Positions 7,643 to 49,509 of a stretch of 64,000 nt of DNA are shown piece by piece. The stretch is taken from assembly GCA_964442325.1 (NCBI GenBank), contig CAYTYX010000001.1, positions 57,485 to 121,484 on the forward strand, written 5' to 3'. The translations under genes were made by a program, and so were the position numbers. A model generated the notes under the pieces. That model was given only the letters and a program-made list of their open reading frames with translations, made no database searches and was not told where the DNA came from. This stretch comes from an uncultured Candidatus Saccharibacteria bacterium (lineage in GTDB: Bacteria; Patescibacteriota; Saccharimonadia; Saccharimonadales; UBA10212). Numbering within the stretch: position 1 is the stretch's first letter; every line of letters begins with the position of its first letter.

Positions 7643-8098
7643 ATGAGACGAGGAGTCGCAAGAAGCCTCAACGAGTTCGATCACCAAGTTGTCCTAGTTG
7701 GCGAGCTTCGTTCTCAACTAGAGACGCTCGAAGCGGAGAAAAAAGCAGTCATCGCCAAGATCGAGAAGCGACAGCAAGTTCTACGAGCTCGGCTAGAGCG
7801 GATCGAGCTCAACATCGGTCGCTTCTACTTCGCCCGTGGAGCCGAATTCTTCAAGGCAAAGACCAAGACAATCGTCACGCGCTCTGGTGGTCGGGTGTGG
7901 TCCCGCAAGTCCAGGTTCGTGCATCTGCACAGGGCCGAACAGACGGTTATCGCCGAGATCATCGCCAGTGGGAATTGGAAGCGATTCCTGCGAATCGAGC
8001 TCAACCTGACAGCCCTCAAGAACAATCCCGGGTTTGCGGCCTGCGTTCACGCGCCGATTCGGGAAAAGGAAGTGGTGATCATCACGCCGGCCGAGTAA
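7643..8098 (+). CDS. phage Mu Gam-like host-nuclease inhibitor family protein
   Basis: 151 aa. N-terminal coiled coil (ELRSQLETLEAEKKAVIAKIEKRQQVLRARLERIE) followed by the beta-rich K.K.I..RSG.V..RKS...V...AE..VI..I...G...F.R.E..L...ALK pattern of the Gam-like family. GGGAGGG SD 5 nt upstream. Much higher GC than its neighbours. Confidence 0.6.
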   Translation: MRRGVARSLNEFDHQVVLVGELRSQLETLEAEKKAVIAKIEKRQQVLRARLERIELNIGRFYFARGAEFFKAKTKTIVTRSGGRVWSRKSRFVHLHRAEQTVIAEIIASGNWKRFLRIELNLTALKNNPGFAACVHAPIREKEVVIITPAE

Positions 8099-8529: not shown

Positions 8530-9042
8530 TTAGAGCTTACTTGTCTTTTCTATAAATTCGACGGTCTCTTTAGGCGTAAATGTTTCCGGAATAACCTGCT
8601 CCAGCTTATGACCTGATGGGAAGCTGGTAGGGTACCATTTCCGTAACTCCGGCTCTCCAAATTCCAAGGGTTCGATATTCTTTTTGGTATGGCGCTTAAG
8701 TGTCTCTTCGAGGCTGGTATCAAAGTAAAAAATATAATTTTCTTCCGGATGTTCCGTGAAAATATCTTCTAAAACTTGGCCATAGGCCTTTACGCTTAGT
8801 ATGCCTTCAAGAATAACGTCGTAGCCATCTTTTAGAGCAAACAATGTATTACTCTTAATCATCTTATGAATAGTGGTTGAATTGGGTTTAGTGCCACCAC
8901 CAGCTGGCTTGAACATAAATCTATAGTGATCCTGTTCAATAAGCACAGTCCGTCTGGCGGCTTTATTAAAAAGCATCTTGGAGGCAGTACTTTTGCCGGA
9001 TGCCGAGGGTCCCCGTAGGACGATAAGTTTGGTTTGGCTCAT
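8530..9042 (-). CDS. P-loop kinase/AAA-type NTPase (small-molecule or nucleotide kinase-like)
   Basis: 170 aa with Walker A LRGPSASGKST near the N-terminus. Substrate unknown. Confidence 0.6.
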   Translation of the reverse strand: MSQTKLIVLRGPSASGKSTASKMLFNKAARRTVLIEQDHYRFMFKPAGGGTKPNSTTIHKMIKSNTLFALKDGYDVILEGILSVKAYGQVLEDIFTEHPEENYIFYFDTSLEETLKRHTKKNIEPLEFGEPELRKWYPTSFPSGHKLEQVIPETFTPKETVEFIEKTSKL

Positions 9043-10247: not shown

Positions 10248-10322
10248 TGGCTCCGGAGGCCGGACTCGAACCGGCAACATCCTCGTTAACAGCGAGGCGC
10301 TCTACCATTGAGCTACTCCGGA
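10248..10322 (-). tRNA. tRNA-Asn (anticodon GTT), CCA encoded
   Basis: Hand-folded cloverleaf: acceptor TCCGGAG/CTCCGGA, D arm GCTC-AATGGTA-GAGC, anticodon arm CCTCG-CTGTTAA-CGAGG, T arm GCCGG-TTCGAGT-CCGGC, then G-CCA. Confidence 0.9.
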
Positions 10323-21013: not shown

Positions 21014-21205
21014 TTACTTGCCGTAAGGGCCGCTGCCGTATCCGGAACTGGCTTGATGATTACTTGGACTATCCAAAAGGCCCTTATGTCCAAGTAGTTT
21101 CAGTATGGTAGAAAGCCCCATAATCGACAGCAATCCGGCGCCAAGAATAGTTAAAAACTCTTTGCGGGTAACTTCTTTTTGCTGGATTTTGTCTAGCTGG
21201 CTCAT
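21014..21205 (-). CDS. 63-aa protein with Tat-like (RK variant) signal/anchor
   Basis: VTRKEFLTILGAGLLSIMGLSTI resembles the S/T-R-R-x-F-L-K motif plus h-region. Lies immediately downstream of tatC on the same strand. Confidence 0.45.
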   Translation of the reverse strand: MSQLDKIQQKEVTRKEFLTILGAGLLSIMGLSTILKLLGHKGLLDSPSNHQASSGYGSGPYGK

Positions 21206-21231: not shown

Positions 21232-22131
21232 TTATGCTTGCCGCACCGGCGGTATAATATCCCACACCAGCTTGGCTGGTCGGGGACTGGTGGGTTGTAC
21301 AATTACCCCCACGTTTGGCACAGGTTCTATGAATGTATCGGTAGCAGTATCTGTAACAACCACCGGCGATTCAACTCGCCGCCGATTGTGCAGGTAAACT
21401 GCCAGCACCGAGATTTGATACATCGCCAGAATCGGCAGCGTAAAGAAAACCAGATTGGTAATATCGGTAGTTGGTGCCATTACCGCCGCGGCAATAAAGG
21501 CAAAGGCAATCACGTAACGCTCCCAGCCCAGAAGCCTTCGCGGGCTAAGCGGCTTGATGCGATTAATAAACGTGATAATTAGCGGCAACTGGAACAATAT
21601 GGCCGAACCAAGCAAATACATCGTGATAAAGCTCATATATTCCTGGATGGTCAATAGCGGTCTAATTTGGGTAGTCGTAAATTGATGCGATAGAAAATGC
21701 AGCAGCAAGGGCAGGCCGAGGTAGTAGCCAAAAACGCCACCGGCTATGGCAAAGACAAACGAGTAAAAACTATAGCGCAGTATTAGCGAACGCTTATGAT
21801 GGCCTAGCAGCGGCTCAAGGTAGCGCACAATCTGATAAACAATTACCGGGATGCTTAAAGCGATTCCAAAATACAGGCACACTTGGAACAAAAAATTGAG
21901 TCCACCGCCCGGCGTGGTGTAAATAAATTGCTGGCCATGCGACGGTTTGAGTAGCCAGGTTACAATTTGCTGCTGAATAAAATAGCCGGCCAGCGTGAAA
22001 CCAACTACCGAAACTGCGACATAAAACAATCGTCGGCGCAGTTCGTGCACGTGCTCTATAAACGGCCGTTTTAGATCAAGCCGCGTGTGAAGCTGGTGGT
22101 TGATCGTCTGATTTTGGTTTGTCGCTTCCAT
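21232..22131 (-). CDS. tatC: twin-arginine translocase subunit TatC
   Basis: 299 aa, 6 TM, with an N-terminal FIEHVHELRRRL motif. Its 5' end overlaps tatA by 56 nt if Met1 is used. Confidence 0.88.
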   Translation of the reverse strand: MEATNQNQTINHQLHTRLDLKRPFIEHVHELRRRLFYVAVSVVGFTLAGYFIQQQIVTWLLKPSHGQQFIYTTPGGGLNFLFQVCLYFGIALSIPVIVYQIVRYLEPLLGHHKRSLILRYSFYSFVFAIAGGVFGYYLGLPLLLHFLSHQFTTTQIRPLLTIQEYMSFITMYLLGSAILFQLPLIITFINRIKPLSPRRLLGWERYVIAFAFIAAAVMAPTTDITNLVFFTLPILAMYQISVLAVYLHNRRRVESPVVVTDTATDTFIEPVPNVGVIVQPTSPRPAKLVWDIIPPVRQA

Positions 22132-22303
22132 TTTTGGTGTTTTCGTTTACATCTCCACTTATACCCTTGCGCAGCTCGCGCATCGATTGGCCAATGCTCT
22201 TGCTAAGCTCAGGCAGTTTCTTACTACCAAATAGAAGTAGCAAGATAACTAAAATTATTATTAATTCCGGCGTGCCGATGTCTAGTAGACCAAATGTTGC
22301 CAT
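22076..22303 (-). CDS. tatA: twin-arginine translocase subunit TatA/E
   Basis: 75 aa with GTPELIIILVILLLLFGSKKLPELSKSIGQSMRELRKG, the canonical TatA TM helix plus amphipathic helix. Confidence 0.9.
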   Translation of the reverse strand: MATFGLLDIGTPELIIILVILLLLFGSKKLPELSKSIGQSMRELRKGISGDVNENTKNGSDKPKSDDQPPASHAA

Positions 22304-22396: not shown

Positions 22397-22723
22397 ATGC
22401 AGCAATCGATAGTAGCTGATGTTTACGGTGGTGGCAACTACGGCGCTGGCCAATATTCGGCCACGGGCGTAACTGGCTCTTCTAGCTCTACAACTTCTGG
22501 CTCCGGTAGCAGCACAACCGGCACTTCGAGCTCTCCAACCACCACTCCAAGCTCCCCGACTACCACTACTCTGCAGCCGGCCGCTGGTAGCCCAGCCCCA
22601 ACAACTGTCGCATCGGCTAGCCACGTATGGTTGTGGTCGGCGATTATTGTATTTGCAGTCGTGGTGGTAGTACTGCTGTGGCGGCGACTTCGTCGCCATA
22701 AACAACTTGACGTTTACTATTAA
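22397..22723 (+). CDS. Ser/Thr/Pro-rich C-tail-anchored small protein (first gene of the fibre locus)
   Basis: 108 aa with a low-complexity STP-rich stretch, a C-terminal TM helix (VWLWSAIIVFAVVVVVLLW) and a basic tail. GCAAGAGGA 9 nt before the ATG resembles the leader motif of the paralog genes. Confidence 0.55.
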   Translation: MQQSIVADVYGGGNYGAGQYSATGVTGSSSSTTSGSGSSTTGTSSSPTTTPSSPTTTTLQPAAGSPAPTTVASASHVWLWSAIIVFAVVVVVLLWRRLRRHKQLDVYY

Positions 22724-22733
22724 TCCTCATCTC

Positions 22734-22845
22734 AATCTCTTGTATAATAACCTCAAGCACTTAAAGTAGCGCAAGAGGGAGTTTTTAAAGACAAACAATG
22801 GCTAGACTGCCAATACCTGGTTCTGATGACGGCACCTGGGGAGAT
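22734..22845 (+). repeat. 112-nt block identical to 30863-30974 (promoter, 5' leader and first 16 codons)
   Basis: Base-by-base comparison by eye. Identity runs from aatctcttgtataat... through ...ggcacctggggagat. Confidence 0.85.
22741..22748 (+). promoter_or_regulatory. TG-TATAAT promoter -10 element of paralog 1
   Basis: cttgTGTATAATaacctcaagcac is conserved upstream of four paralogs, about 50 nt before the ATG. Confidence 0.5.
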
Positions 22846-25125
22846 ATCCTCAATTCTTTTTTAGAAGTTGAGCATAATGCTGACGGCAGCCAAAAGACTC
22901 TACCAATAACCAAAGGCGGCACTGGTGCGACTGATTCTACCGCCGCCCGAACCAATCTAGACGTTCCATCAACCTCCGACTTAGGCTCTAAAGCTGACGA
23001 CTCCACTGTTGTCCACCTCGCCGGCACCGAAACCATCACCGGCAATAAAGACTTCACTGGCTCCATAACCAAGAACAGCGCCAACCTCATCACTAGAATC
23101 CAGGATGCGACGGATGTCAACCTAGCCGGCGCGGCTGATGGTGATCCGGTCGTCTTCGACTCGGCATCGGGCGGGGCGAAGCACACATCCCCTTCATTTA
23201 TTAGTGCCTACAGGCTAACTAGTGACGGTACGACCGTAAGGGCGTACGACAAAACGGGTGCGCAGATTGCTTCTAACGCTGACGGCGGGGCTGTCTTGCA
23301 AGCAGTCTTCACGGCCATGCCCGCCGCAGGCGCACATATTGCATTCCGCAACGACGGCAATGTTTTCCCCTGGGCAACGACGCCACTCATCCCGAAGAAC
23401 ATAAGTAAGAAACTACTAATTCAAGGAAATGGTGCCACTGTTATACTGTCTGCTACCGCTCCGATCTTCCTTGATGTTAACCGCACTCTTCCCGGTGACA
23501 CGTTCCAGAACTTCGAAGTCTCCGATTTCATCATTAACCGCAACAACGTGAACCCGGCCCTTGGTGCTCCCGTCGTCCTCGGCGCATCCACCTCGTTCCG
23601 GATCAACTGGAACCACATCACCATTCGCCGGATCAAGACAATCAACGTCCCGACGAACGCAGGTACCGGTGCGATCAACCGAAACGTAGAAATCATCAGC
23701 TACCATACGGATGCTGGCGAAGCGCAGACCAACGTTACCGACATCCTTATCGAGGACTGCGATTTCGGGGGCGGAAACTACGGCGTTTTTGTCGGCGGGT
23801 TGGTTGTAAATGGTCGCTCCTGTGAAGTGCTTGTAGACCGGATCAAAGTCTACCGAGTCAAGCACGACACGCTTTCACTTAACAATACCAACACACTGCG
23901 TGGCGACGTACATGTGCATATCGGTGGTTTCGGCTTTGGCGGGAGCTGCGTCATCCGCGATTGTGAAGGCTTCAATACAGGCGACACCGGCTACGAGATT
24001 GACTCGATGATGTTTGCCATAGTTGATGGCTGTATCGCCTCTGATTACTGGTCAAAGGGCTTCCTTCTTCGCAACTTCCGGGCTGTACAAGATGTTAATT
24101 CTCAGCTTTACGTCGTTCGTGGTTGCAAAGCAGCAATCGTCAATTTGGTTGGAAATGAATGTCCACCGATTCAGTCGCAGAACGGTTTCTGCCTTCCAGT
24201 GCTGAATACAGACACTCCGTTTGGGCACATCGTTATTTCAGACTGTGAGTGGCATACCAAGCAATCTCAATTGGGGGACGGCACCGGAGATATGCTTGGC
24301 TTGGCAATACTGAATCTCTGGCAGATTCAGAGCATCACTGTACGTGATTTCACCATGGTTGCCGATTCACTTGCTGATACCTATGTAGGCGGGACGCTTA
24401 GGTTTGATACTGCGATCATGCTTTTTCCTGCAACTGATAATGCAAAAATCAGACTTGAAAACATCCAGGTAATCACGGCTGGAACGGTAACTACACAGCG
24501 ACGTTTGTGGTGGATTCGGGTTGGTTCAACTGGCAGCCACCCAGTTTCTTTTACCTGCGACGGCATTTGGTTCTCACCTGGTACTACGGGCGGTGGTAAT
24601 GGGCATCAACGGCTCGTCAGCCTCGGCGCGGCTCTCCCGGATGTTACAACTATGCGCGGGGTAATGCGTCGGGTTGGTGTCATCAACTACACCTCCGACG
24701 ACACACAGCCAGCCGGGATCGGAATAGAGGGCCAGAACCAGCTTGTCGTTGACGGGCAACTAGTTTTCGAAGACTGCGACTTCCGCAAGTTCCCAGGCAG
24801 TGCGGCTGATATTCAGTTCGAGGCGACCGGTACGTCGAATGCGGCATTCGTTAACGCCGTACGTATAAAAGGCCACATTTACCCATATAGCGCTACAGTC
24901 ATCACACCCAACGGCTCACCGTTCATCTGGCAGAACCTGCTCGGATATAGGGCGAAGCTACTGATCTTCGGCGGCACCGTCTCGGATATCCAGTGGTCGA
25001 ACGACGGTAGCACATACCGAGACACGGGATTCATAACCGGAGCAACTATCGATGTTGATCCTGGAGACTACGTGCAGGTCACCTACACCGGAGCGCCAAC
25101 GATGCGTGCCTTCCAGGTCAAATAG
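22798..25125 (+). CDS. tail-fibre/tailspike-like paralog 1 (constant N-module plus beta-helix-like body)
   Basis: 775 aa starting MARLPIPGSDDGTWGDILNSFLEVEHNADGSQK. Carries KGGTGATDSTAARTNL and KADDSTVVHLAGTETITGNKDFTG motifs, then repetitive Asn/Gly/Val-rich segments (ILIEDCDFGGGNYGVFVGG, CVIRDCEGFNTGDTGYEID) suggesting a parallel beta-helix. No signal peptide or TM helix. Confidence 0.75.
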   Translation: MARLPIPGSDDGTWGDILNSFLEVEHNADGSQKTLPITKGGTGATDSTAARTNLDVPSTSDLGSKADDSTVVHLAGTETITGNKDFTGSITKNSANLITRIQDATDVNLAGAADGDPVVFDSASGGAKHTSPSFISAYRLTSDGTTVRAYDKTGAQIASNADGGAVLQAVFTAMPAAGAHIAFRNDGNVFPWATTPLIPKNISKKLLIQGNGATVILSATAPIFLDVNRTLPGDTFQNFEVSDFIINRNNVNPALGAPVVLGASTSFRINWNHITIRRIKTINVPTNAGTGAINRNVEIISYHTDAGEAQTNVTDILIEDCDFGGGNYGVFVGGLVVNGRSCEVLVDRIKVYRVKHDTLSLNNTNTLRGDVHVHIGGFGFGGSCVIRDCEGFNTGDTGYEIDSMMFAIVDGCIASDYWSKGFLLRNFRAVQDVNSQLYVVRGCKAAIVNLVGNECPPIQSQNGFCLPVLNTDTPFGHIVISDCEWHTKQSQLGDGTGDMLGLAILNLWQIQSITVRDFTMVADSLADTYVGGTLRFDTAIMLFPATDNAKIRLENIQVITAGTVTTQRRLWWIRVGSTGSHPVSFTCDGIWFSPGTTGGGNGHQRLVSLGAALPDVTTMRGVMRRVGVINYTSDDTQPAGIGIEGQNQLVVDGQLVFEDCDFRKFPGSAADIQFEATGTSNAAFVNAVRIKGHIYPYSATVITPNGSPFIWQNLLGYRAKLLIFGGTVSDIQWSNDGSTYRDTGFITGATIDVDPGDYVQVTYTGAPTMRAFQVK

Positions 25126-25150
25126 CGCCTACTCACTCCTAGCCGATTCT

Positions 25151-25158
25151 TGTATAAT
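25151..25158 (+). promoter_or_regulatory. TG-TATAAT promoter -10 element of paralog 2
   Basis: Same ttcttgtataataacctcaagcac context as at 22741. Confidence 0.5.
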
Positions 25159-25207
25159 AACCTCAAGCACTAACTAGTGATGAGAGGGAGTTATTTAAAG
25201 ACAAACA

Positions 25208-26803
25208 ATGGCTAGACTACCAATACCCGATTCCGATGATGGCACCTGGGGAGATATATTAAACTCCTTTTTGCTGGTTGGTCATAGCACCGATGGCTCA
25301 CTCAAGAACGCCGAAACTCCAGCAGGTGCACAAGCTAAAGCTGACGTCGCCCAAAGCGCCGCCGAAGCAGCCTCTATCCCAACCACCGCCCTAGACACCG
25401 ACACTACCCTAGCTGCCAATAGTGATAGCCGAGTTTCTTCGCAAAAGGCCGTAAAGTCATACGCGGATGCGCTTGGCGATTCGATTCCCTCCGTGGGGAA
25501 GACGTATCCGCTTGACGCAGATAATAATATGGGAATCGGCGACCAGCTTGCATTTCTGCAGATTGGTGCCACAGGCACCGGACAAACGCGCGTAACTTCT
25601 AGAAACATCGCATTAGGTTCGCTTGCAGGTGATTCATGGACAACCGATACCGAAGAGACCGCGGTTGGCTATCAGGCGATGCAGCATATGCAAAACGGTC
25701 GTGCCAATACCGCGCTCGGGCAGGGTGCGATGCAAAACGCGACTGGTGGCGATCGCAACGTTGCTGTTGGCACCGGGACGCTCAATTCACTCACCGGTGG
25801 TCTGTTCCCGGGCACGACCAACGGAACGTTCAACACCGCTGTAGGCGATGCCGCCTGCACGAGTCTGACAACTGGGTACTCCAACGTTTCGGTTGGTAGT
25901 GCGTCGATGTCGGCCGCTACGACCGGTTACCATAACACAGCCGTTGGCGAATCGGCCCTGACGGCACTGACGAACGGATTTGAGAACGTAGCGATTGGCA
26001 GCAGTGCTCTCAGCCATGCGACTGCGGACGCAGATCTTGTGGCAGTTGGTCCTTTCGCGATGCAGAACACGAACGGAGGTGCGGGAGGCGTCGCGGTCGG
26101 TTATTCAGCAATGAACGCCAACACCACTGGCTCAGACAACACCGCCGTTGGCTCTAACTCGCTGCACGCCAACCAAACTGGGACGCAGAACACCGCACTT
26201 GGTTCAAACGCACTAGCCTCATCCACTGCAGGTGGCAGCACAGCAGTCGGCTACAAGGCACTTAACTCGTCCGTAACTGGGCTGCACAACGTTGCCGTCG
26301 GTAACGCTGCGGCCAAGAACCTAACCACAAGCGATAACACGGCGATTGGCTTCAATGCGCAGAACGCAAACACTACGGGCGCGCAGACAGTCGCAATCGG
26401 CAGCAGTGCGCTTTTGAATCATAGTGGTGGTGATGGCAACGTCGGTGTTGGTTACCAGGCTGGAAACGCGATTACAGCGGGTGCATTCAATACAATTATG
26501 GGCCGCAATGCCGGCAACACCGGCTCGTCGAATGCATCCAATATGACGCTCCTGGGCTACACAACTGTAGGTGGCGGTAACTACGCAACCGCTGTTGGCA
26601 GTAGTGCTTCGGCTGGCGCCGCTGGCGCGGTTGCCATTGGCACCGACCATACCGGGGCTGGTGCCAGCGCCGGAACACAAGACTACTTCGTGCTCGGAAC
26701 CGCCAACCATAAACTGTTCATACCCGGTCTGCCGACAGCTAACCCGCACGTTGTCGGACAGTTGTGGTTGAACGCCGGCGTTCTGAATGTGAGTGCAGGC
26801 TAA
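25208..26803 (+). CDS. tail-fibre-like paralog 2 (constant N-module plus YadA-head/Hep_Hag-like repeat body)
   Basis: 531 aa with the same N-module and a DTDTTLAANSDSRVSSQKAVKSYAD motif. About 20 degenerate NTA(V/I)G..A(L/M)...T.G repeats follow. C-terminus is HVVGQLWLNAGVLNVSAG. Confidence 0.75.
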   Translation: MARLPIPDSDDGTWGDILNSFLLVGHSTDGSLKNAETPAGAQAKADVAQSAAEAASIPTTALDTDTTLAANSDSRVSSQKAVKSYADALGDSIPSVGKTYPLDADNNMGIGDQLAFLQIGATGTGQTRVTSRNIALGSLAGDSWTTDTEETAVGYQAMQHMQNGRANTALGQGAMQNATGGDRNVAVGTGTLNSLTGGLFPGTTNGTFNTAVGDAACTSLTTGYSNVSVGSASMSAATTGYHNTAVGESALTALTNGFENVAIGSSALSHATADADLVAVGPFAMQNTNGGAGGVAVGYSAMNANTTGSDNTAVGSNSLHANQTGTQNTALGSNALASSTAGGSTAVGYKALNSSVTGLHNVAVGNAAAKNLTTSDNTAIGFNAQNANTTGAQTVAIGSSALLNHSGGDGNVGVGYQAGNAITAGAFNTIMGRNAGNTGSSNASNMTLLGYTTVGGGNYATAVGSSASAGAAGAVAIGTDHTGAGASAGTQDYFVLGTANHKLFIPGLPTANPHVVGQLWLNAGVLNVSAG

Positions 26804-27042
26804 TGAAGCGCCTACGTCTTGTTAAGGTGATTGTCCAACCAGTGTTTGTGCTCGACGATGGCAATACCATCACCGAGGTCGACCATTCGCCGGTTGTAAT
26901 CCCAGCCGCCGACTGGCCAACTTATAGCGGCGAACGCTTCCCGCGCGAAGTCAAAGAATGGCAAGAGCGCCTAGATGCCGAGACAAAGCCCGGCCAACCC
27001 CAAGACCTCTCTCCGCTAAAGGACGAGCCCAATAAAAAGTAA
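26803..27042 (+). CDS. small fibre-associated protein, single-domain member (candidate assembly chaperone)
   Basis: 79 aa; its ATG overlaps the paralog-2 stop (TAATG). LVKVIVQPVFVLDDGNTITEVDHSPVVIPAADWPTYSGERFP aligns by eye with the PYKFIV...FP domains at 28844-29245. Confidence 0.55.
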   Translation: MKRLRLVKVIVQPVFVLDDGNTITEVDHSPVVIPAADWPTYSGERFPREVKEWQERLDAETKPGQPQDLSPLKDEPNKK

Positions 27043-27074
27043 ATAAACTAGTCTTAAACCTCACCTCAATCTCT

Positions 27075-27082
27075 TGTATAAT
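27075..27082 (+). promoter_or_regulatory. TG-TATAAT promoter -10 element of paralog 3
   Basis: The cctcaatctcttgtataat context is shared with 22727-22748. The leader diverges and contains a ccttaagcttttaagg hairpin. Confidence 0.5.
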
Positions 27083-27134
27083 AGCCTTAAGCTTTTAAGG
27101 AGTGGCTAGGAGCTTTTGATAAAGATAAACACAT

Positions 27135-28847
27135 ATGGCTAGACTACCAATACCTGGAGGAGATGACGGCACATGGGGAGATATATTAAACTCTTTCCTG
27201 GTTGTCTCTCATAATACTGACGGAACTCTAAAGAGCAATTCACTGAGCTTCCCGGGTGACGCCACGATTACCTCCGATTCGGATGCATCTGGTGCCGGCG
27301 ATATCATCCTTAAAACCGCTACCACCGAACGTCTCCGCTTTAATACAGCCGGGTCGATGCTGTGGAAGAACCAAGTTCTAGTCACCCGAACCTTTCAGTC
27401 GCTGCCAAGCGCAGATATCCCCGCCGGCACCAACGTCTTAGAAATCGACGAGTATGGAAACGTGCTTTTTGGCCCTAATGACTTCCTTTTTACGCGTCAA
27501 GGCAACATCTTCCAACTGGGATCCATCGCTGACTTTATGTATCACCAGGAGACGCGGCGTATTTATACTCGTTCTGCCGCCTTCGTCGAGTTCGGCGATC
27601 CGCCGGATGTAATTATCGCTCGTGCTGGACCCGACAATATATATCCGGGCGTTGCTGGCGGCCTAGCTGGTATCCCTAGCGGCACGACCTTAGGTGTAAT
27701 CCGCTGGCAGGGCTCGTTTACACCGCAAGGTGGTACGGTCGGTGTGACGCAAGGCGGTGCGTTCCATAACGACAGCGCCCAGATATACGCCAAGGCCGCC
27801 GAGGACAATAACTTCAATGGCGGCACGTCTTATAGTCAGGGTGGTGAGCTGCATTTCGCAACAACCCCAAATGGCACAGCCACGCCCGTCGATGCGCTGG
27901 TCATCTCGAGCGACCAAACGGTGACCGCGAAGAAGGCTCTCACCGTCGCGGGACTGACTGGGGCGACCGCAACGTCCCGGTTGACTGGCGCGACGACGTC
28001 CGGTCCTCCGACAACTGGAACCTTCGCGGTCGGCGACACCGTGATCGACCGGTCGGGGTCGCTGTGGATTTGCGTAGGCGCTGGTACACCCGGCACCTGG
28101 AAACAAGTCGGGGGCACGTTCCCTGGCGGAGCGCCTGGACTCAAAAATGCCAAGTATGTGCCAATCTTTGGCTCTAACCTTGGTACTGGTGACCACGATC
28201 TCTACACTGTTCCGGTAGGCCGCCAGGCTCTCGTCGATCGTAACCTGGTCGCTTACAACATCGCCGGGTCGGGCGGAAACATCGTCTGCTACTCAGAGAT
28301 CAAGGTCGGTGGTGTTTACTACCGCGTCAGTCCGAACGTCACCATCGCGGATGGTGCCGGTGGGTCACCCGGAATGGCAGTGCATATGGTTCTCGCCGCA
28401 GGAGAAAAGTTTGCTGCCAACACCGCGACCACGGCCGGACTCAATGTGCGAGGCGGCGTCTGGGAATTCGACGCTGACGACACGAGGGTTTTCACGGCAC
28501 GCATCCTCGGGCTCGCGTCTGGAGACAATCTCCTCTACACCGTCCCTGCTGGCAAGTCGGTCGTGTTCCTTCAGGGCGCCGAGTTCGTCCCCTCGATGAC
28601 TGCCCAGATTCAGATCGTGAACAACACGGGCGGCTCGCTCAACTACTACGCGAACGCAGTGCCCTCAGGCGGCACAGTCGGCCCAACCAACCGCTGCTTT
28701 TCAGCAGTCGCGGTCGGCGACAAAGCGCTCGGCCAGATCTTCGGCGCACAACCGCTATCGCCGGGCGATTTCATCAGTGTCAACGCATCGGGTCCCGACG
28801 CGGGCGGCCACCACATCGCATGGGTTACCGGATATCAACTTCCATGA
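27135..28847 (+). CDS. tail-fibre-like paralog 3 (constant N-module, shared shaft, unique distal domain)
   Basis: 570 aa. The first ~245 aa are roughly nine-in-ten identical to paralog 4 by eye. Contains FAVGDTVIDRSGSLWICVGAGTPGTWKQVG, then a unique C-terminal ~230 aa. Confidence 0.75.
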   Translation: MARLPIPGGDDGTWGDILNSFLVVSHNTDGTLKSNSLSFPGDATITSDSDASGAGDIILKTATTERLRFNTAGSMLWKNQVLVTRTFQSLPSADIPAGTNVLEIDEYGNVLFGPNDFLFTRQGNIFQLGSIADFMYHQETRRIYTRSAAFVEFGDPPDVIIARAGPDNIYPGVAGGLAGIPSGTTLGVIRWQGSFTPQGGTVGVTQGGAFHNDSAQIYAKAAEDNNFNGGTSYSQGGELHFATTPNGTATPVDALVISSDQTVTAKKALTVAGLTGATATSRLTGATTSGPPTTGTFAVGDTVIDRSGSLWICVGAGTPGTWKQVGGTFPGGAPGLKNAKYVPIFGSNLGTGDHDLYTVPVGRQALVDRNLVAYNIAGSGGNIVCYSEIKVGGVYYRVSPNVTIADGAGGSPGMAVHMVLAAGEKFAANTATTAGLNVRGGVWEFDADDTRVFTARILGLASGDNLLYTVPAGKSVVFLQGAEFVPSMTAQIQIVNNTGGSLNYYANAVPSGGTVGPTNRCFSAVAVGDKALGQIFGAQPLSPGDFISVNASGPDAGGHHIAWVTGYQLP

Positions 28848-29245
28848 TAGAAAAAGAAGAAATTATGCCAAATACCCTATTTCCCTACAAATTCATCGTT
28901 CAAGCTGTTGTCCAGCAACTATCAAAAGATGGCCAAGTTCTGGGCGAAGTATCTTCCGAGCCGGTCCAGCTTTTTAGCACAGATCAACTGGCGGCGTGGG
29001 CCTCCAACTTCCCAGATTCCTTGGCTGATCTAAAAGAGGCTCAGACTACCGGTACAAAACTAGCACCGTATAAATTTATTGTTGAGGCAGTCGTTCAAGA
29101 AAAGGGTAAGGGTGGAAAAGTCATTGCTGAGCACAACTCGCAGCCAGCCACTCTTTTTGGATGTGATAACTTGGCTGCTTGGGCAAAAGAATTCCCAGAC
29201 AGACTAAGTAAAGCCGTAGCTCAAGAAAAATCTAAAGCTAAATAA
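28844..29245 (+). CDS. small fibre-associated protein, tandem two-domain member (candidate assembly chaperone)
   Basis: 133 aa; its ATG overlaps the paralog-3 stop (ATGA). Two repeats: PYKFIVQAVVQQLSKDGQVLGEVSSEPVQLFSTDQLAAWASNFPD and PYKFIVEAVVQEKGKGGKVIAEHNSQPATLFGCDNLAAWAKEFPD. Its stop lies 2 nt before the paralog-4 ATG. Confidence 0.6.
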   Translation: MIEKEEIMPNTLFPYKFIVQAVVQQLSKDGQVLGEVSSEPVQLFSTDQLAAWASNFPDSLADLKEAQTTGTKLAPYKFIVEAVVQEKGKGGKVIAEHNSQPATLFGCDNLAAWAKEFPDRLSKAVAQEKSKAK

Positions 29246-29247
29246 CA

Positions 29248-30807
29248 ATGGCCCGTCTACCAATACCTGGCTCTGATGACGGCACTTGGGGAGATATCCT
29301 TAACTCCTTCCTGGTTGTTGCCCATAATACTGACGGAACTCTAAAGGGCAATTCGCTGACCTCTCCAGGTGATATTACGATTAGCTCCGACTCGGACGCA
29401 TCCGGCGCTGGCGATATCGTCCTTAAAACTGGCACCACCGAACGCCTTCGTTTTAATACGGATGGGTCAATGCTGTGGAAAAACCAAGTTCTAGTCACGC
29501 GAACCTTTCAGTCGAACCCGCGCGCGGATATCCCCGCCGGCACCAACGTCTTCGAAATCGACGAATATGGGAACGTCCTCTTTGGCCCTAATGACTTCCT
29601 TTTTACGCGTCAAGGCAACATCTTCCAGATGGGATCCATCGCCGACTTTATATATCACCAGGAGACCAGGCGCATCTACACACGCTCTGCCGCTTTCGTC
29701 GAGTTCGGCGATCCGCCGGATGTCATCATCGCTCGTGCTGGGCCGGATAATTCTTATCCCGGTGTCGCTGGCGGACCCGCCGGCATCCCCGGCGGCACGA
29801 ACTTAGGCGTGATCCGTTGGCAGGGCTCGTTTACACCGCAGGGTGGTACGCCAGACGTAACTCTTGGTGGCGCATTCTATAAAGACAGCGCGCAGATATA
29901 TGCCAAGGCCGCCGAGGACAATAAGTTCAACGGTGGCACGTCATACAGCCAAGGCGGTGAGCTTTATTTTGCAACTACTCGGAGCGGCACTTCTCAGTCT
30001 GTGGCCGGTTTAGCACTTTTAAACGATCAAACCTTGCAGATCCTTGGCCCGAGAGTTGTCTATAGCGGTGGAGATTTTGAGTTCTCGGGCACCCAACCAC
30101 AACTCCGCTTCGACGCTGTCACAGACTCGAGTCGCGCGATTGTGCTCTTCAAACTCGCCGGCGAGGCGCAGTCCCTCTTCGTGATGCGCATGAGCGGCGC
30201 TTTGGAATGGGGACCTGGTGGCAATACACCCTCAGACACATTCCTTGAAAGGGGAGCGGCCGGCCAGATGAAGGTCACCGGCGATCTGAACGTTACAGGC
30301 AATATTGGTGGTAGCCAGTACCGGCGTATCTCTGGCCTACCATCGACCTCGAACAACACCAACGCCGTGGTCAGCGCAGCAGATGTATATGGGATGCAAA
30401 CAAACGGCAACTTGAATACCCAGAGTGCTTCCGGTAACGTGCCAGCAATCTTCTATCTTAACCCAACCGACTTTGCGATTACTGGCAAAACGACAAAGAT
30501 GCGGCTAAGAATCGGGACACTCGTCAACGACACTGCTCCGGCCAACACAATGACCTGGGGACTTTACCCGGTGGGTAACCAAACAGGAGGTAGTGGTATC
30601 TTAAACCCCACCCTTGGTACTGTGGTGTCAGGGTCAACGGTCGCGCAGACGACCCCGGCAGCCAACGCCAAAATTACTCCTGTTTCGAGCAGTGACTTCA
30701 CTATGCCCTCGGCTGGCTTTTATATGATTGGGGCGGCGTCGAGCGGTGCGATGGCTGCCAACTCGAAGGTTGCAACGACCATCAGCCTCGAAGTCAGAAA
30801 TGTGTAG
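29248..30807 (+). CDS. tail-fibre-like paralog 4 (constant N-module, shared shaft, unique distal domain)
   Basis: 519 aa starting MARLPIPGSDDGTWGDILNSFLVVAHNTDGTLK. It has no promoter box of its own and is coupled to the preceding small gene. The C-terminal ~270 aa are unrelated to paralog 3. Confidence 0.75.
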   Translation: MARLPIPGSDDGTWGDILNSFLVVAHNTDGTLKGNSLTSPGDITISSDSDASGAGDIVLKTGTTERLRFNTDGSMLWKNQVLVTRTFQSNPRADIPAGTNVFEIDEYGNVLFGPNDFLFTRQGNIFQMGSIADFIYHQETRRIYTRSAAFVEFGDPPDVIIARAGPDNSYPGVAGGPAGIPGGTNLGVIRWQGSFTPQGGTPDVTLGGAFYKDSAQIYAKAAEDNKFNGGTSYSQGGELYFATTRSGTSQSVAGLALLNDQTLQILGPRVVYSGGDFEFSGTQPQLRFDAVTDSSRAIVLFKLAGEAQSLFVMRMSGALEWGPGGNTPSDTFLERGAAGQMKVTGDLNVTGNIGGSQYRRISGLPSTSNNTNAVVSAADVYGMQTNGNLNTQSASGNVPAIFYLNPTDFAITGKTTKMRLRIGTLVNDTAPANTMTWGLYPVGNQTGGSGILNPTLGTVVSGSTVAQTTPAANAKITPVSSSDFTMPSAGFYMIGAASSGAMAANSKVATTISLEVRNV

Positions 30808-30862
30808 GCGGGTCGCTTACTCCAGCGCTCGAATCCATCCTGTTCCTATTATCCTTCCCCTT

Positions 30863-30974
30863 AATCTCTTGTATAATAACCTCAAGCACTTAAAGTAGCG
30901 CAAGAGGGAGTTTTTAAAGACAAACAATGGCTAGACTGCCAATACCTGGTTCTGATGACGGCACCTGGGGAGAT
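30863..30974 (+). repeat. 112-nt block identical to 22734-22845
   Basis: See 22734-22845. Confidence 0.85.
30870..30877 (+). promoter_or_regulatory. TG-TATAAT promoter -10 element of paralog 5
   Basis: Lies within the 112-nt identical block. Confidence 0.5.
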
Positions 30975-32075
30975 GTATTAAACGCTTTTCTTAAAGTCGA
31001 ACATCACTCTGACGGCACTCAAAAAACCTTGTCTGTAAGTAAGGGTGGCACTGGTGCGACCAACTCTACTACCGCCAGAACCAATTTAGGGGCTATCAAT
31101 AAAGTAGCTGATGCGGCGGATGTCGCCATTACTTCGCCAGCCGACGGCGAGCCGCTTGCCTGGGATGAAGCAACCTCGAAGTTCACAAGTGGCCAGCCGA
31201 TCAAGCTGCGGAACTCTCTCGCCGTTGTCGCGGACCTGTCGCCCACTGGCGACATTTCGCCTGGGACGATCACTTTCCGGCATGACGCCTACGGCAATGC
31301 TTTCCTCGGCCCGAACGTCTACCTCCCGGCACCCGATAACTCCCTGAGCGCCGCCATCGTCATCGCGGACTTCTTCTACTCGCAACGGTTTCGACGTCTG
31401 TTCACGAGGTCAATCTGCGTCAGAGATCTCGGCGATCCCCCTGACCTCATAATCGGGCGCGCTGGTCCGGATGGCGGTTGGCCGGACAACGGAGGTCTAG
31501 GCCTAGCCGGTGTCATGAGCAACGACTCGCTCGGCAGTATCCGCTGGCAGGGATCTTTCCAGCCCAGCGGTGTAGGAATAGACACCGTTTCTGGCTTCCA
31601 GGGCGATAGCGCCACAATCTACGCGCGCGCTTCTGAGGACAACAGGCGCACTTCCGATAGCGTCTATCACCAGGGTGGTGAGCTGCATATCGCCACGACC
31701 CCGAACGGGACGTCTTCTCCGGTCGATCGACTCATCATCCAGAACGATGGAGTGTTCGATTTCCGGGGAAATAATATCAAGGTCGGATCGGCCGACTTCT
31801 CCGGAGCAGCTGAAGCCCATACGACGCTGCGGGTCGACGGCATACTAACCGCGGCGAGCGAGGTCGATGCGAACAGCGACATTAGGTTCGGAGAAGGATC
31901 CAACATCATCGTCGGCACGACAAGCGGCACAAGGATCGGCACATCAGCGACCCAGAAGCTCGGCTTCTTCGGCAAGTCGGCCATCGTGCAGCCGCTTCTT
32001 GCAACTGGGGCGGGCCACACCGTCGACGACGTCATCACAGTCCTCCAGAACCTCGGACTAGTGAGGCAGACATGA
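30927..32075 (+). CDS. tail-fibre-like paralog 5 (mosaic: paralog-1-like head, paralog-3/4-like shaft, short distal end)
   Basis: 382 aa. Residues 1-55 resemble paralog 1 (KVEHHSDGTQKTLSVSKGGTGATNSTTARTNLG). Residues ~100-275 are homologous to the paralog 3/4 shaft (GDPPDLIIGRAGPD...IRWQGSF...YHQGGELHIATTPNGT). C-terminus is QKLGFFGKSAIVQP...VLQNLGLVRQT. Confidence 0.75.
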   Translation: MARLPIPGSDDGTWGDVLNAFLKVEHHSDGTQKTLSVSKGGTGATNSTTARTNLGAINKVADAADVAITSPADGEPLAWDEATSKFTSGQPIKLRNSLAVVADLSPTGDISPGTITFRHDAYGNAFLGPNVYLPAPDNSLSAAIVIADFFYSQRFRRLFTRSICVRDLGDPPDLIIGRAGPDGGWPDNGGLGLAGVMSNDSLGSIRWQGSFQPSGVGIDTVSGFQGDSATIYARASEDNRRTSDSVYHQGGELHIATTPNGTSSPVDRLIIQNDGVFDFRGNNIKVGSADFSGAAEAHTTLRVDGILTAASEVDANSDIRFGEGSNIIVGTTSGTRIGTSATQKLGFFGKSAIVQPLLATGAGHTVDDVITVLQNLGLVRQT

Positions 32076-32194
32076 CCCTCCATCCCTACAAATTTATCGC
32101 CACGAACAATCGTAGGTGGCGTGACTGGCTCAAAGATTTGGATCAGACTCAACGGATCATGGAAGAGCGCGGCGGTCGCATGAAAAGCCTATGA
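32072..32194 (+). CDS. truncated or divergent member of the small fibre-associated family
   Basis: 40 aa; its ATG overlaps the paralog-5 stop (ATGA). It begins MTLHPYKFIA, matching the PYKFIV motif, then diverges. Below the ORF-track cutoff. Confidence 0.4.
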   Translation: MTLHPYKFIATNNRRWRDWLKDLDQTQRIMEERGGRMKSL

Positions 32195-49427: not shown

Positions 49428-49509
49428 TTTTTAACCTAACTACCTCTATTGGCAAGGTGAGCCAAACCGCTTATAGTAAAAGCTTATAGACCTATAAATA
49501 TATTTGATT

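Follow-up and report, generated by a model that had tools for sequence, protein, structure and literature searches.

Cell-encoded proteins resembling phage tail fibres have been described in Bdellovibrio bacteriovorus, a bacterium living on bacteria, whose 21 mosaic adhesive trimer (MAT) proteins are located on the cell surface (Caulton et al. 2024, PMC10769870). MAT fibres carry Sec signal peptides and combine an invariable, beta-rich N-terminal domain of ~130 amino acids with swappable C-terminal tips, and one of them binds prey glycans (PMC10769870). According to a 2024 study of a Saccharibacteria pilus, little is known about how ultrasmall CPR episymbionts locate their bacterial hosts and stay attached to them (PMC11623550). 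Here, we describe an array of five genes for phage tail-fibre-like proteins located on a soil Saccharibacteria chromosome, for which the portion of the genome covered is the 64-kb stretch of DNA analysed in this study (the window).

HybOC and DmsAB of E. coli are examples of 'hitchhiker' co-export by the Tat system, and phoD-tatAd-tatCd of B. subtilis represents a minimal Tat operon linked to its substrate. A further hitchhiker example from E. coli, PaoABC, is given in a published source (PMC4273604). According to a published survey, the occurrence of Tat in Saccharibacteria is patchy (PMC6031116), and in freshwater CPR the system was reported in Microgenomatia, Paceibacteria, and Saccharimonadia (PMC9166423).

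Results

Gene array and N-terminal module

Five intact open reading frames of 775, 531, 570, 519, and 382 amino acids were confirmed on the + strand at the positions given in the original prediction. As described there, they share the start MARLPIPG.DDGTWGD.LN.FL and continue with divergent bodies. In the alignment, 23 columns were invariant within the first 36 residues, and divergence sets in past residue ~36. For 33 codons of this N-module compared among the five paralogs, pS was 0.39–0.78 and pN 0.07–0.17, with pN/pS ratios of 0.12–0.39. By this measure, the N-module is a real unit under strong purifying selection, with synonymous sites near saturation. Recent gene conversion as the source of the module similarity was ruled out by the pS values. 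The N-termini of all five paralogs are acidic (net charge −2 to −4 over 35 amino acids). Neither a signal peptide nor a TM-like segment was detected in any of them (maximum Kyte-Doolittle mean over 19 residues ≤1.44), and all motifs listed earlier were found, specifically GGTGAT..ARTNL, KADDSTVVHLAGTETITGNKDF, DTDTTLAANSD..SQKAVKSY, GTPGTW, and KLGFFG.

The surrounding genes are cellular and no phage gene is present in the 64-kb window, in accordance with the original prediction. Upstream of the array, XFP phosphoketolase, acetate kinase, TsaE/TsaD, RNase Y, a Na/H exchanger, and TatC/TatA are encoded. Downstream genes code for Nramp, a DsbA-like protein, AspRS, and VIT1 and, farther away, for MMPL, VKOR, NUDIX, an ABC transporter, MurJ, and LepA. 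Sheath, tube, baseplate, tail, capsid, or lysis genes were not found within the window. PADLOC models gave no match for the five paralogs, o63 (see below), TatC, or the small ORFs, and a weak low-complexity match only for orf108. A comparison of synteny at the tat-Nramp junction, which had been suggested as a check, revealed that the equivalent tatC-to-Nramp locus of the related genome L008 contains only two paralogs vs. five here.

The span described earlier does contain the five paralogs, but orf108 (22397–22723, + strand, 108 amino acids) and three small 'PYKFIV' ORFs inside it had been omitted. An 83-nt block containing CTTGTATAAT was identified upstream of paralogs 1, 2, 3, and 5 (22715–22797, 25125–25207, 27049–27131, and 30844–30926, all on the + strand; repeat family D4), with identities of 60–92%. 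The first block comprises CTTGTATAAT as an extended -10-like element together with the leader, and the fourth is 92% identical to it. Paralog 4 lacks such a block and is preceded instead by an ORF of 141 amino acids (28820–29245, + strand), which lies between paralogs 3 and 4, contains two 'PYKFIV.AVVQ...LAAWA..FP' repeats, and has an ortholog only in L008, the closest relative. The ATG of a small 'PYKFIV-like' ORF (26803–27042, + strand, 79 amino acids) overlaps the stop codon of paralog 2; searches including PADLOC yielded no family match for it. A 'PYKFI' ORF remnant of 40 amino acids is located at 32072–32194 (+ strand, repeat family D9).

Sequence and predicted structure of the paralogs

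Paralog 1 (22798–25125, + strand) consists of the N-module, GGTGAT and BppL_N-like motifs, a right-handed beta-helix, and a C-terminal beta domain. Its AlphaFold2 model is confident for residues 135–775 and of low confidence for residues 1–134. The top Foldseek matches of the model were the phage tailspike depolymerases 9k4a, 6tku, HK620 6gvp, and Sf6 2vbe (E ~1e-5, probability 1.0), and matches in BFVD include pectate-lyase, tailspike, and pre-neck appendage proteins. The two methods agree with the beta-helix-like body proposed earlier and point to a predicted tailspike/depolymerase-like fold.

In paralog 2 (25208–26803, + strand), the N-module is followed by at least 13 NTAVG-type repeats. 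Residues 167–394 contain 13 strict N[TV]A[VIL]G repeats with a period of 17, plus degenerate copies. The protein matched the PHROG tail-spike family phrog_4636 at 6e-49, and no Pfam match was obtained at E≤1, YadA included. Of the ~20 YadA-head-like repeats claimed for this protein, the repeats as such are present, but 13 are strict and the likeness to YadA is not reflected in Pfam.

Paralog 3 (27135–28847, + strand) comprises the N-module, a shaft, the GTPGTW motif, and, as its tip, a double beta-sandwich. Its AlphaFold2 model is confident only for approximately residues 335–570, residues 1–289 being of low confidence. Foldseek matched the tip to PHM, PNGase F, and neuropilin b1b2-like sandwiches. 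Paralog 4 (29248–30807, + strand) carries a different tip on the same shaft behind the N-module; the sharing noted earlier amounts to 86% identity across ~46% of paralog 3. The shaft is also present in paralog 5 (30927–32075, + strand) in a diverged form with ~41% identity, together with the N-module, a GGTGAT motif, and a KLGFFG C-terminal end that resembles a tail protein of Staphylococcus phage SAP3. Models of the paralog shafts are of low confidence. PHROG matches of the array proteins were to tail-spike and tail-fibre families, and in predicted fold the five genes are phage receptor-binding-protein-like. In our best reading of the locus, which, taken as a whole, we consider an even bet, paralog 1 would be a tailspike/depolymerase-like beta-helix and paralog 2 a repeat protein, and the remaining three would be fibres ending in lectin-like tips.

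Distribution and phage origin of the N-module

In the search with the N-module that had been recommended, at least 6,008 protein clusters matched at E≤1e-3, of which 2,363 also passed the stricter threshold of E≤1e-10. The genes are mostly located on chromosomes of Saccharibacteria and other CPR, and a few belong to Actinobacteria. The match starts at residue 1 in nearly all of the best 150 of the 6,008 matches. No match to the shared N-module was found in the copies of Pfam-A, NCBIfam, and PADLOC searched. Among 86 sampled family members, Pfam identified DUF5907 (33), BppL_N (33), Pect-lyase_RHGA_epim (23), and Beta_helix (10), and additionally GDSL hydrolase, polysaccharide deacetylase, and carbohydrate-binding modules. 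PF05658 was found in one family member (P0440), and Peptidase_S74 in none of the 86 members or the five paralogs. Elsewhere, each locus contains 1–4 N-module genes, several such loci being found in a genome, and most of the carriers are Saccharibacteria.

The family is thus much larger than one array; it extends over several phyla plus a few Streptomyces phages, which the original prediction had missed.

Of 50,697 isolate phage records, four, all from Streptomyces phages, contain the N-module, which was also detected in eight IMG/VR contigs. In the IMG/VR phage contigs (L104–L111 and L115), the genes are situated next to tape-measure/Dit genes: directly after the tape measure in L107, and after the tape measure plus Dit in L109. 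Because the module heads the receptor-binding protein beside tape-measure and Dit genes, the N-module is a phage docking handle by origin, which bears out the earlier idea of a constant N-terminal adaptor. Judged by its sequence, the N-terminal anchor is homologous to that of proteins in true tail gene clusters. The array as part of such a virion tail gene cluster was rejected: none is present in the window and none is recurrent near 77 loci with N-module genes sampled from 55 genomes, almost all of them metagenome-assembled.

The original prediction had also considered a fibre arsenal used with a phage or tailocin encoded elsewhere. In this case, the genes would be spare fibres for the phage, tailocin, or another tail-like particle, the N-module would dock on the baseplate of that particle, and the adjacency of tat would be incidental. 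The position of the module at the head of receptor-binding proteins in phage tail clusters, a diverged form within a virion module in L006, the four Streptomyces phage records, and a view of the genome limited to 64 kb are in line with such an arsenal. However, virion genes are lacking in the window, and de novo clustering of the neighbours at the 77 loci revealed no recurrent phage family. The enriched neighbours are features of the cellular envelope, namely tatA, tatC, o63, and membrane-anchored YG proteins, some of them with Sec signals. Furthermore, genomes of only ~1 Mb hold several dispersed loci, and cellular modules (70–94% identical) are more uniform than phage modules (46–65%). A fibre arsenal is therefore disfavoured, and we regard it as unlikely.

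Linkage to tatA, tatC, and o63

The original prediction treated tatC (21232–22131, − strand; PF00902; TIGR00945 at 5.5e-40, above the curated cut-off) and tatA (22076–22303, − strand; PF02416; TIGR01411 at 1.7e-16) as a neutral flank. Instead, they proved to be the most enriched neighbours of N-module genes: TatC (15 loci) and TatA (10 loci) were the top recurrent neighbours among the 77 loci, and no other export gene family was found among the top clusters. At least one of tatA, tatC, or o63 was present in 21 of the 77 loci, corresponding to a binomial P of 3e-18 at a 2% chance per random locus and of 2e-12 at 4%. In four of five blindly chosen TatC loci, N-module genes were located within 6 kb; none was found in the vicinity of L091, a tat-o63 locus of the blind set. 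Approximately 73% of the N-module loci are without a tat gene inside 10 kb, as expected for genomes in which a single tat locus is accompanied by several loci with fibre genes; a looser association fits too. The linkage was found across Saccharibacteria, Parcubacteria, Levyibacteriota, Peribacteria, and Acidithrix. Most of the CPR matches (Levyibacteriota, Parcubacteria, Saccharibacteria) belong to the three classes with reported Tat, Microgenomatia, Paceibacteria, and Saccharimonadia.

Directly downstream of tatC, o63 (21014–21205, − strand) encodes 63 amino acids, in which a Tat-type signal made up of EVTRKEFL and a hydrophobic region is combined with the C-terminal tail SGYGSGPYGK, which contains the motif GYGSGPYG. 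This gene is kept after tatC or before N-module genes at ~20 loci including Acidithrix, and it matched NCBIfam NF038009 'Tat system-associated protein' at 3e-14, below the curated cut-off of the model. A canonical RR was found in o63-like genes of L015, L045, and L062, the second Arg usually being Lys, Thr, Ser, or Gln elsewhere; in L062, the gene lies beside an N-module gene at a locus without tatC. The genes are co-oriented, the distance between the o63 stop and the start of the N-module being 2–6 nt in L015, L019, and L029, and the operon order tatA-tatC-o63-cargo recurs across loci. At the gene level, signal-less fibre genes are co-encoded with a Tat-signal partner, as for hitchhiker cargo. 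The membrane topology of o63 is ambiguous, and instead of acting as a carrier, the protein could represent a TatB-like subunit.

The recurrence of this near-abutting, operon-like order across phyla also speaks against the notion that the array is a set of decaying prophage tail-fibre remnants without present function, inserted at a recombination or integration hot spot at the tatAC site. The differing number of paralogs in close relatives (five vs. two), the truncated small ORF at 32072–32194, and short N-module fragments of 41–45 amino acids in L019 and L029 could be taken as signs of decay. Against this, all five ORFs (382–775 amino acids) are intact, strong purifying selection acts on the module, whose synonymous sites are near saturation, the promoter-like blocks are conserved, and thousands of intact family members exist, so that we regard decay as very improbable.

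A canonical Tat signal within the N-module was rejected: MARLPIPGSDDGTWG... contains one Arg, is net acidic, and lacks a hydrophobic stretch and an AxA site. The earlier guess of a docking or export handle gained support from the linkage to tatA/tatC and YG anchors, but the N-module itself is not a Tat signal. The missing Tat features, the majority of N-module loci without tat nearby, and T4SS genes near N-module genes in L086 and L088 would suit surface fibres that leave the cell by another route and are anchored through the N-module to wall, S-layer, or pilus, Tat and o63 being merely co-regulated. On the other hand, the paralogs have no Sec signal or TM segment either, TatC and TatA rank first among the recurrent neighbours with no other export family in the top clusters, and o63 shares its YG motif with the phage partner protein. 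We consider another export route improbable.

YG motif and orf108

In the protein encoded by orf108, a putative stalk or anchor protein, period-5 YG repeats (VYGGGNYGAGQYS) at the N-terminus are followed by a linker rich in Ser and Thr, a single C-terminal TM helix (TM score 2.77), and the basic tail RRLRRHK. Genes of this architecture adjoin tat or N-module genes in L008, L012, L014, L019, L040, L042, and L082, and some copies have a Sec-type signal peptide. In L106–L109 and L115, the phage gene directly downstream of the phage N-module gene begins with MPSLYGSGPYGLGLYG or similar. The YG motif is common to the o63 tail, the orf108 N-terminus, and the phage gene following the N-module gene. 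YG repeats are low-complexity sequence; three-repeat YG motifs were found in only 14 ORFs in 1.13 million six-frame ORF residues, nearly all of them beside N-module or tat genes. In BRock-type Streptomyces phages, neither YG nor tat neighbours were found beside the N-module genes.

Secreted soluble enzymes that degrade or bind glycans, serving nutrition, host-wall remodelling, or as bacteriocin-like weapons, and released from the cell instead of being displayed, with the N-module as an export or assembly tag only, were considered as well. Such a role would be compatible with the pectate-lyase-like, SGNH/GDSL, deacetylase, alpha-1,3-glucanase, and CBM domains of many family members, the depolymerase likeness of paralog 1, the suitability of Tat for exporting folded enzymes, and the location of the Acidithrix cassette in an accessory island. 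However, tethering is suggested by recurrent neighbours that combine a YG motif with a Ser/Thr stalk and a TM anchor, paralogs 3–5 are predicted fibre-plus-lectin proteins without an enzyme domain, and the module is a docking domain in phages. Soluble enzymes therefore seem a rather doubtful explanation to us.

Discussion

Proposed mechanism and significance

In our best reading, which we judge to have roughly equal chances of being right or wrong, the array encodes domesticated, cell-owned phage receptor-binding proteins that are exported in folded form by Tat and docked on YG-peptide anchors. Gene content and order suggest an exchangeable set of fibres for recognising other cells; export, docking, surface location, and host recognition are what we infer from them. 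Each fibre would have kept the ~35-residue N-terminal docking module used by phages at the tail tip, and the cellular partner set of this module would be encoded adjacently by tatA-tatC, o63, and orf108. The fibres would fold and probably trimerise in the cytoplasm, after which the N-modules would bind the YG peptide. TatC may then recognise the complex of o63 and fibre, which would be exported in its folded state as in hitchhiker transport. At the cell surface, the fibres would be tethered to YG-bearing membrane anchors, and their variable ends may bind or cut surface glycans of host or neighbour bacteria.

More tentatively, a phage docking pair consisting of the 35-amino-acid N-module and the period-5 YG peptide may have been domesticated into a modular, Tat-dependent surface display of CPR and some Actinobacteria, with o63 as universal carrier and anchor. 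We consider this broader proposal possible, with the chances leaning against it. Being little beyond a Tat signal and a YG tail, o63 would carry any folded N-module fibre through TatAC, YG-tipped Ser/Thr-stalk proteins would offer further docking sites, and the cell would swap its host-recognition fibres the way a phage swaps tail fibres. If true, fibre display would be the main reason why reduced genomes keep Tat, and the array would be a candidate host-recognition apparatus of episymbiotic Saccharibacteria.

The N-module family with its at least 6,008 clusters provides candidate determinants of specificity whose tips are exchangeable, by analogy with MAT fibres. The linkage of tatAC, o63, and YG proteins suggests a testable route for the export of folded, phage-type trimeric fibres without lysis, and fibre export may explain the retention of Tat in some reduced genomes. 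Since the cassette occurs in Acidithrix ferrooxidans PY-F3, a cultivable actinobacterium, experiments are possible now. Additionally, modular tools for display or targeting could be built on the pair of N-module and YG peptide, and the pair could mark phage receptor-binding proteins for annotation.

Comparison with known systems

The array resembles R-type and F-type tailocins in that phage tail fibres are cell-owned and exchangeable, but sheath, tube, baseplate, and lysis genes are neither present in the window nor recurrent near the family. The NTAVG-type repeats of paralog 2 recall the head repeats of YadA-type trimeric autotransporters, whereas a Pfam YadA match, a signal peptide, and a C-terminal beta-barrel anchor are lacking. 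Saccharibacteria are not known to have an outer membrane.

The Tat hitchhiker systems are similar with respect to signal-less predicted cargo encoded beside tatA/tatC and a small Tat-signal protein (S/T-R-[KR]-E-F-L plus hydrophobic region). Known carriers, however, are full-size redox subunits, in contrast to a 63-residue peptide here, and a large, variable fibre family takes the place of one cofactor enzyme as cargo.

Among siphophage receptor-binding proteins and tailspikes (BppL/BppU of TP901-1; the depolymerases of HK620, Sf6, and Klebsiella phages), a beta-helix like that predicted for paralog 1 is found, and the array further shares BppL_N-like and GGTGAT motifs as well as an N-module that is 46–65% identical in IMG/VR contigs. 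It differs by its conserved chromosomal locus beside tatAC without tail, baseplate, capsid, or lysis genes, and by a cellular N-module family far larger than the phage one.

MAT fibres, compared here by description only, differ in their signal peptides, which are absent from the array, and in their N-terminal domain, as opposed to a module of ~35 amino acids starting at residue 1. Furthermore, the carriers are Gram-positive-type CPR and Actinobacteria in the present case, and the genes are linked to tatAC, o63, and YG anchors. What the array and the MAT fibres have in common is a repertoire of proteins with a constant N-terminus and mosaic C-terminal tips.

The array and its shared N-module

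The five fibre-like genes were confirmed as ORFs on the + strand: paralog 1 at 22798-25125, paralog 2 at 25208-26803, paralog 3 at 27135-28847, paralog 4 at 29248-30807, and paralog 5 at 30927-32075. As the original prediction had it, one N-terminal module (N-module) is followed by divergent bodies: the first 36 residues align without gaps across all five proteins, with 23 invariant columns in 36 (MARLPIP..DDGTWGD.LN.FL.V.H..DG..K), and divergence sets in thereafter. Between the paralogs, the N-module codons showed pS values near saturation (0.39-0.78) and low pN values (0.07-0.17), so the peptide is maintained by selection and not by recent gene conversion. The only structural information on the module is a predicted helix at residues 13-22; Pfam and NCBIfam hold no model for it, and PADLOC gave no match. 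The N-termini of all five paralogs are acidic, and none of the proteins contains a hydrophobic segment, in agreement with the claimed lack of signal peptides and transmembrane (TM) helices.

A conserved 83-nt block with CTTGTATAAT lies 5' of paralogs 1, 2, 3, and 5. A generic promoter and terminator scan did not rise above the shuffled background, and this block is the one feature that would point to promoters in the array.

Bodies of the paralogs

From sequence and model comparisons, the paralog bodies are phage receptor-binding-protein-like. The beta-helix body proposed for paralog 1 was borne out by the AF2 model, which predicts a beta-helix at residues 135-775 (mean pLDDT 69.6, 473 residues ≥70). 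The Foldseek check suggested earlier was run on this model, and its best matches were phage tailspike depolymerases (Klebsiella phage K64-1 S2-4, 6tku, HK620, Sf6, and a K1 capsule lyase). Pectate-lyase, tailspike, and pre-neck appendage proteins were found in BFVD. Three small proteins of uncultured Caudovirales (106-178 aa; BFVD ranks 9, 21, and 35) also matched the model, over a 76-column stretch of paralog 1 (rmsd ~1.0-1.2, 28-36% identity).

Paralog 2 matched the PHROG tail-spike family phrog_4636 (6e-49). Its YadA-head-like repeats are present as 13 strict period-17 repeats, not the roughly 20 first estimated, and there was no Pfam YadA match. Paralogs 3 and 4 share a shaft, as predicted (86% identity over ~46% of paralog 3), of which paralog 5 carries a diverged copy. 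The AF2 model of paralog 3 was confident only distally (~residues 335-570), where the fold is similar to tandem beta-sandwiches of the PHM, PNGase F, and neuropilin b1b2 type. Such sandwiches are typical carbohydrate- or ligand-binding modules. AF2 gave no useful model of the first 134 residues of paralog 1 or of the shaft in paralogs 3-5, and PDB sequence searches with paralogs 1, 2, 3, and 5 returned nothing meaningful.

Genomic setting of the array

The claim that no phage surrounds the array was upheld, the remainder of the 64-kb window consisting of cellular genes. Upstream are phosphoketolase, acetate kinase, TsaE/D, RNase Y, and a Na/H exchanger; downstream are Nramp, DsbA-like, AspRS, MMPL, VKOR, MurJ, and LepA. 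Soil-metagenome contigs from ENA and JGI match the window; among genomes, the closest relative is L008, an uncultured Candidatus Saccharibacteria MAG. Synteny was compared at the tat-Nramp junction, as had been proposed. The L008 locus from tatC to Nramp holds orthologues of paralogs 1 and 3 only; two of five members at a syntenic locus indicate that the array gains and loses members.

Small ORFs follow paralogs 2, 3, and 5 (26803-27042, 28820-29245, and 32072-32194), their starts overlapping the preceding stop codons. They share the motif PYKFIV.AVVQ...G.V..E..S.P..LF..D.LAAWA..FP, present as two repeats after paralog 3 and as a 40-aa remnant after paralog 5. No family match was obtained, and an orthologue was found solely in L008. 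Because they are confined to the window and its closest relative, these ORFs are not a general component of the system and were rejected as general fibre chaperones; they may be fibre-specific assembly factors.

The window's only faintly mobile-element-like genes, a weak Phage_Mu_Gam-like ORF (7643-8098) and a Zeta_toxin/AAA_33-like ORF (8530-9042), lie near tRNA-Asn (10248-10322), 13 kb from the array. Two adjacent ORFs at 47622-49427 (601 aa) and 49504-51414 (636 aa) each contain a CarboxypepD_reg domain, are otherwise unannotated, and may encode further surface proteins.

The N-module family

The HMM search that had been recommended revealed a large, mostly cellular family, not one of virion tail fibres only. 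At E≤1e-3 the 36-residue profile matched at least 6,008 clusters (each represented at 50% identity), of which 2,363 reached E≤1e-10, and the match started at residue 1 in nearly all of the best-scoring 150 matches listed. The downstream parts of 86 sampled members were extremely varied, with Pfam matches to DUF5907 (33), BppL_N (33), pectate-lyase-like (23), Beta_helix (10), and endosialidase N-extension (3) families, and further to GDSL hydrolase, alpha-1,3-glucanase D2, polysaccharide deacetylase, and carbohydrate-binding modules.

As the broad alignment (A3) was too variable for a genome scan, the single pattern PGSDDGTW was used, and the resulting counts (77 loci in 55 genomes) are therefore lower bounds, biased to close variants. 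The loci belong mostly to Saccharibacteria/Saccharimonadales MAGs; Levyibacteriota, Parcubacteria, Peribacteria, Actinomycetes and Pseudonocardiales MAGs, and a few other MAGs were also represented, along with the isolate Acidithrix ferrooxidans PY-F3. Most hits in CPR bacteria belong to the classes Microgenomatia, Paceibacteria, and Saccharimonadia. Loci carried 1-3 copies, with several loci per genome, and the five copies in the window form the largest array among them.

In other CPR, short N-module proteins (135-284 aa) adjoin tatAC (L089 877-3360, L094 7492-9953, and L092 7498-11673). What comes next is either separate Mtd_N-type fibre genes together with an ORF of 149 aa and a Gly-rich protein of 300 aa, or a protein of 1106 aa, a layout that looks like a split adaptor-plus-fibre arrangement. 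At two loci, L086 (1-9355) and L088 (identical to L016; 2521-9769 and 16746-19469), type IV secretion genes adjoin N-module genes (TrbL, TraG-like and VirB4-like ATPases, TrbC, multiple T4SS_pilin, and a coupling-protein-like gene). Although labelled Limnocylindrales, L016 is similar to Saccharibacteria in gene content.

Linkage to Tat genes

The tatA and tatC genes had been regarded as mere flanks of the array, whereas they are enriched beside N-module genes and thus part of the story. A tblastn search of the 77 loci with TatA and TatC from the window placed tat next to N-module genes in 18 of the 55 genomes. When all ORFs ≤6 kb from N-module genes were clustered without supervision, the neighbours that recurred most often were TatC (15 loci) and TatA (10 loci), and there was no recurrent phage family. 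In total, 21 of the 77 loci carried tatA, tatC, or the small gene o63 (binomial P 3e-18 at a 2% random chance per locus, 2e-12 at 4%). The tat and N-module genes were usually co-oriented; the orders seen include tatA-tatC-o63-N-module gene, N-module gene-tatA-tatC-o63, and tatCA between fibre genes (L016, L031, and L090). For a reverse check, TatC homologues on long contigs were chosen without knowing their context; N-module genes lay within 6 kb in four of five species-level loci (L089, L090 with four such genes, L092, and L094). Several matches to TatC and to an N-module gene fell on same-sized metagenome contigs of 2-8 kb, which were taken to be the same contigs. Tat has been described as patchy in Saccharibacteria (PMC6031116), and in freshwater CPR it was reported from Microgenomatia, Paceibacteria, and Saccharimonadia (PMC9166423).

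TatC proteins of Acidithrix and Actinomycetes are 57-58% identical to that of the window, compared to 34-49% for many Saccharibacteria TatCs, and the Acidithrix cassette is surrounded by CBASS-like, SIR2-like, and S8/AAA genes. Taken together, these sequence data suggest a mobile accessory cassette. In the cultivable actinobacterium Acidithrix ferrooxidans PY-F3 (L040, NZ_JXYS01000026.1, 3323-20013), the cassette comprises an N-module pectate-lyase protein, a YG/Ser-Thr/TM protein, tatA, tatC (58% identical to Saccharibacteria TatC), and an o63 homologue (67 aa). It sits amid SMODS/AGS_C (CBASS-like), subtilase plus AAA, and SIR2_2 genes, surroundings reminiscent of a defence island.

Alignment of the window TatC (21232-22131) with 133 homologues showed that E15 is conserved. 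E. coli E103 belongs to the twin-arginine binding site; at the equivalent position, where the alignment is uncertain, most members of the clade have T, S, or A and the window has K. A parallel is seen in o63, whose motif usually has K, T, S, or Q in place of the second Arg. A change in how TatC binds signals was considered, and given this alignment no conclusion was drawn.

o63, orf108, and the YG motif

Directly after tatC, o63 (21014-21205) encodes a 63-aa protein with a Tat-type motif, (S/T)-R-(K/R/T/S/Q)-E-F-L, a hydrophobic region, and a tail that terminates in GYGSGPYG(K). The HMM made from ten copies matched 15 of the 77 genome-scan loci, the window, and three blind TatC loci (L089-L091). 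o63 also occurs beside N-module genes in loci that contain no tatC (L062, with a canonical RR motif, L066, and L049). In L015, L019, and L029, 2-6 nt separate its stop from the start of the N-module. It scored 3e-14 to 6e-18 against NCBIfam NF038009 ('twin-arginine translocation system-associated protein'), below the curated cut-off. Its topology is ambiguous, and it may be a TatB-like subunit.

Between tatA and paralog 1, orf108 (22397-22723) combines N-terminal period-5 YG repeats (VYGGGNYGAGQYS) with a Ser/Thr-rich linker, one TM helix, and a basic tail. Proteins built in this way also adjoin tat or N-module genes in L008, L012, L014, L019, L040 (Acidithrix), L042, and L082. In several orf108-like proteins a Sec-type signal peptide immediately precedes the YG repeats, which should therefore be extracellular. 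Among 1.13 million residues of six-frame ORFs, a three-repeat YG pattern was found in only 14 ORFs (~0.5 expected from composition), nearly all in N-module, tat, orf108-like, or phage-neighbour contexts.

The N-module in phages

Eight IMG/VR contigs carry an N-module with 46-65% identity, within co-oriented structural modules that include a major head protein. The N-module gene follows the tape-measure gene in L107, and the tape-measure and Dit genes in L109; the virion module of L006 holds a more diverged copy. Concerning the module's origin, these tail gene clusters speak for the constant adaptor of the original prediction, and it is to origin that this support extends. In five phage contigs (L106-L109 and L115), the gene immediately downstream of the N-module gene opens with the YG repeat, with starts such as MPVVYGVSPYGASLYG, MPSLYGSGPYGLGLYG, and VSGYGSGLYGSGVYGSGPYS. 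The motif is absent at the C-termini of phage proteins encoded upstream of the N-module gene.

Only five isolate-phage records matched paralog 5. Four are Streptomyces phage records with the N-module (BRock under two accessions, pSt2308, and GiJojo); with the fifth, Staphylococcus phage SAP3, only the C-terminus of paralog 5 matches. The N-module gene of BRock and of GiJojo lies in a tRNA-rich region outside the tail gene cluster. BRock gp186 (L003, 7791-8738), annotated as 'collagen triple helix repeat-containing protein', has an apparently mis-called start overlapping tRNA-Lys; the true start is probably MTRLPIPDSDSGTWDDILNDFL.

Proposed mechanism

The simplest account of these facts would be that N-module and YG peptide form a docking pair. 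In phages, the pair would mount receptor-binding proteins on a tail protein. In cells, the YG peptide would be presented on o63, with its Tat signal, and on stalked membrane anchors. The fibres could then be exported as folded cargo via TatAC, hitchhiking on o63; this would be the most economical route, because proteins of the tailspike type normally reach their folded, trimeric state in the cytoplasm and the paralogs have no Sec signal. YG anchors would tether the fibres, so that interchangeable binding or depolymerising ends would be displayed on the surface of the episymbiont.

Several observations count against this model: the N-module has no Tat-signal features, o63 is of ambiguous topology and may be TatB-like, the YG repeats are of low complexity, most N-module loci are not beside tat, and the blind tat-o63 locus L091 has no N-module gene nearby. 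The analysis shows the folds, the family with its taxonomy, the lack of phage context, the linkage of the genes, and the motif they share; from these we infer that the partners bind, that the fibres are exported and displayed, and that they act in host recognition. We consider the odds of this whole chain to be even; the specific version with hitchhiker and anchor is tentative and rather unlikely to hold in full.

Comparison with known systems

The array does not belong to the virion fibre class, since there is no tail gene cluster, and it also falls outside the tailocins. The N-module proteins are not canonical Tat substrates, since they have no RR signal, and the paralogs are distinct from trimeric autotransporter adhesins. 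In the literature searched on Saccharibacteria/Patescibacteria surface or phage-like proteins and on TatC with tail fibres, we found no description of the N-module family or of its Tat linkage.

The closest functional analogue of the family is the MAT repertoire of Bdellovibrio, which comprises 21 surface-located fibres; these have a signal peptide, a constant ~130-aa N-domain whose partner is unknown, and mosaic tips (PMC10769870). The N-module family differs from it in the module itself, the lack of a signal peptide, the taxonomy, and the Tat and YG neighbourhood. A cell-owned arsenal of phage-fibre-like proteins is of a kind already known; the export and anchoring logic of the N-module fibres could be categorically new.
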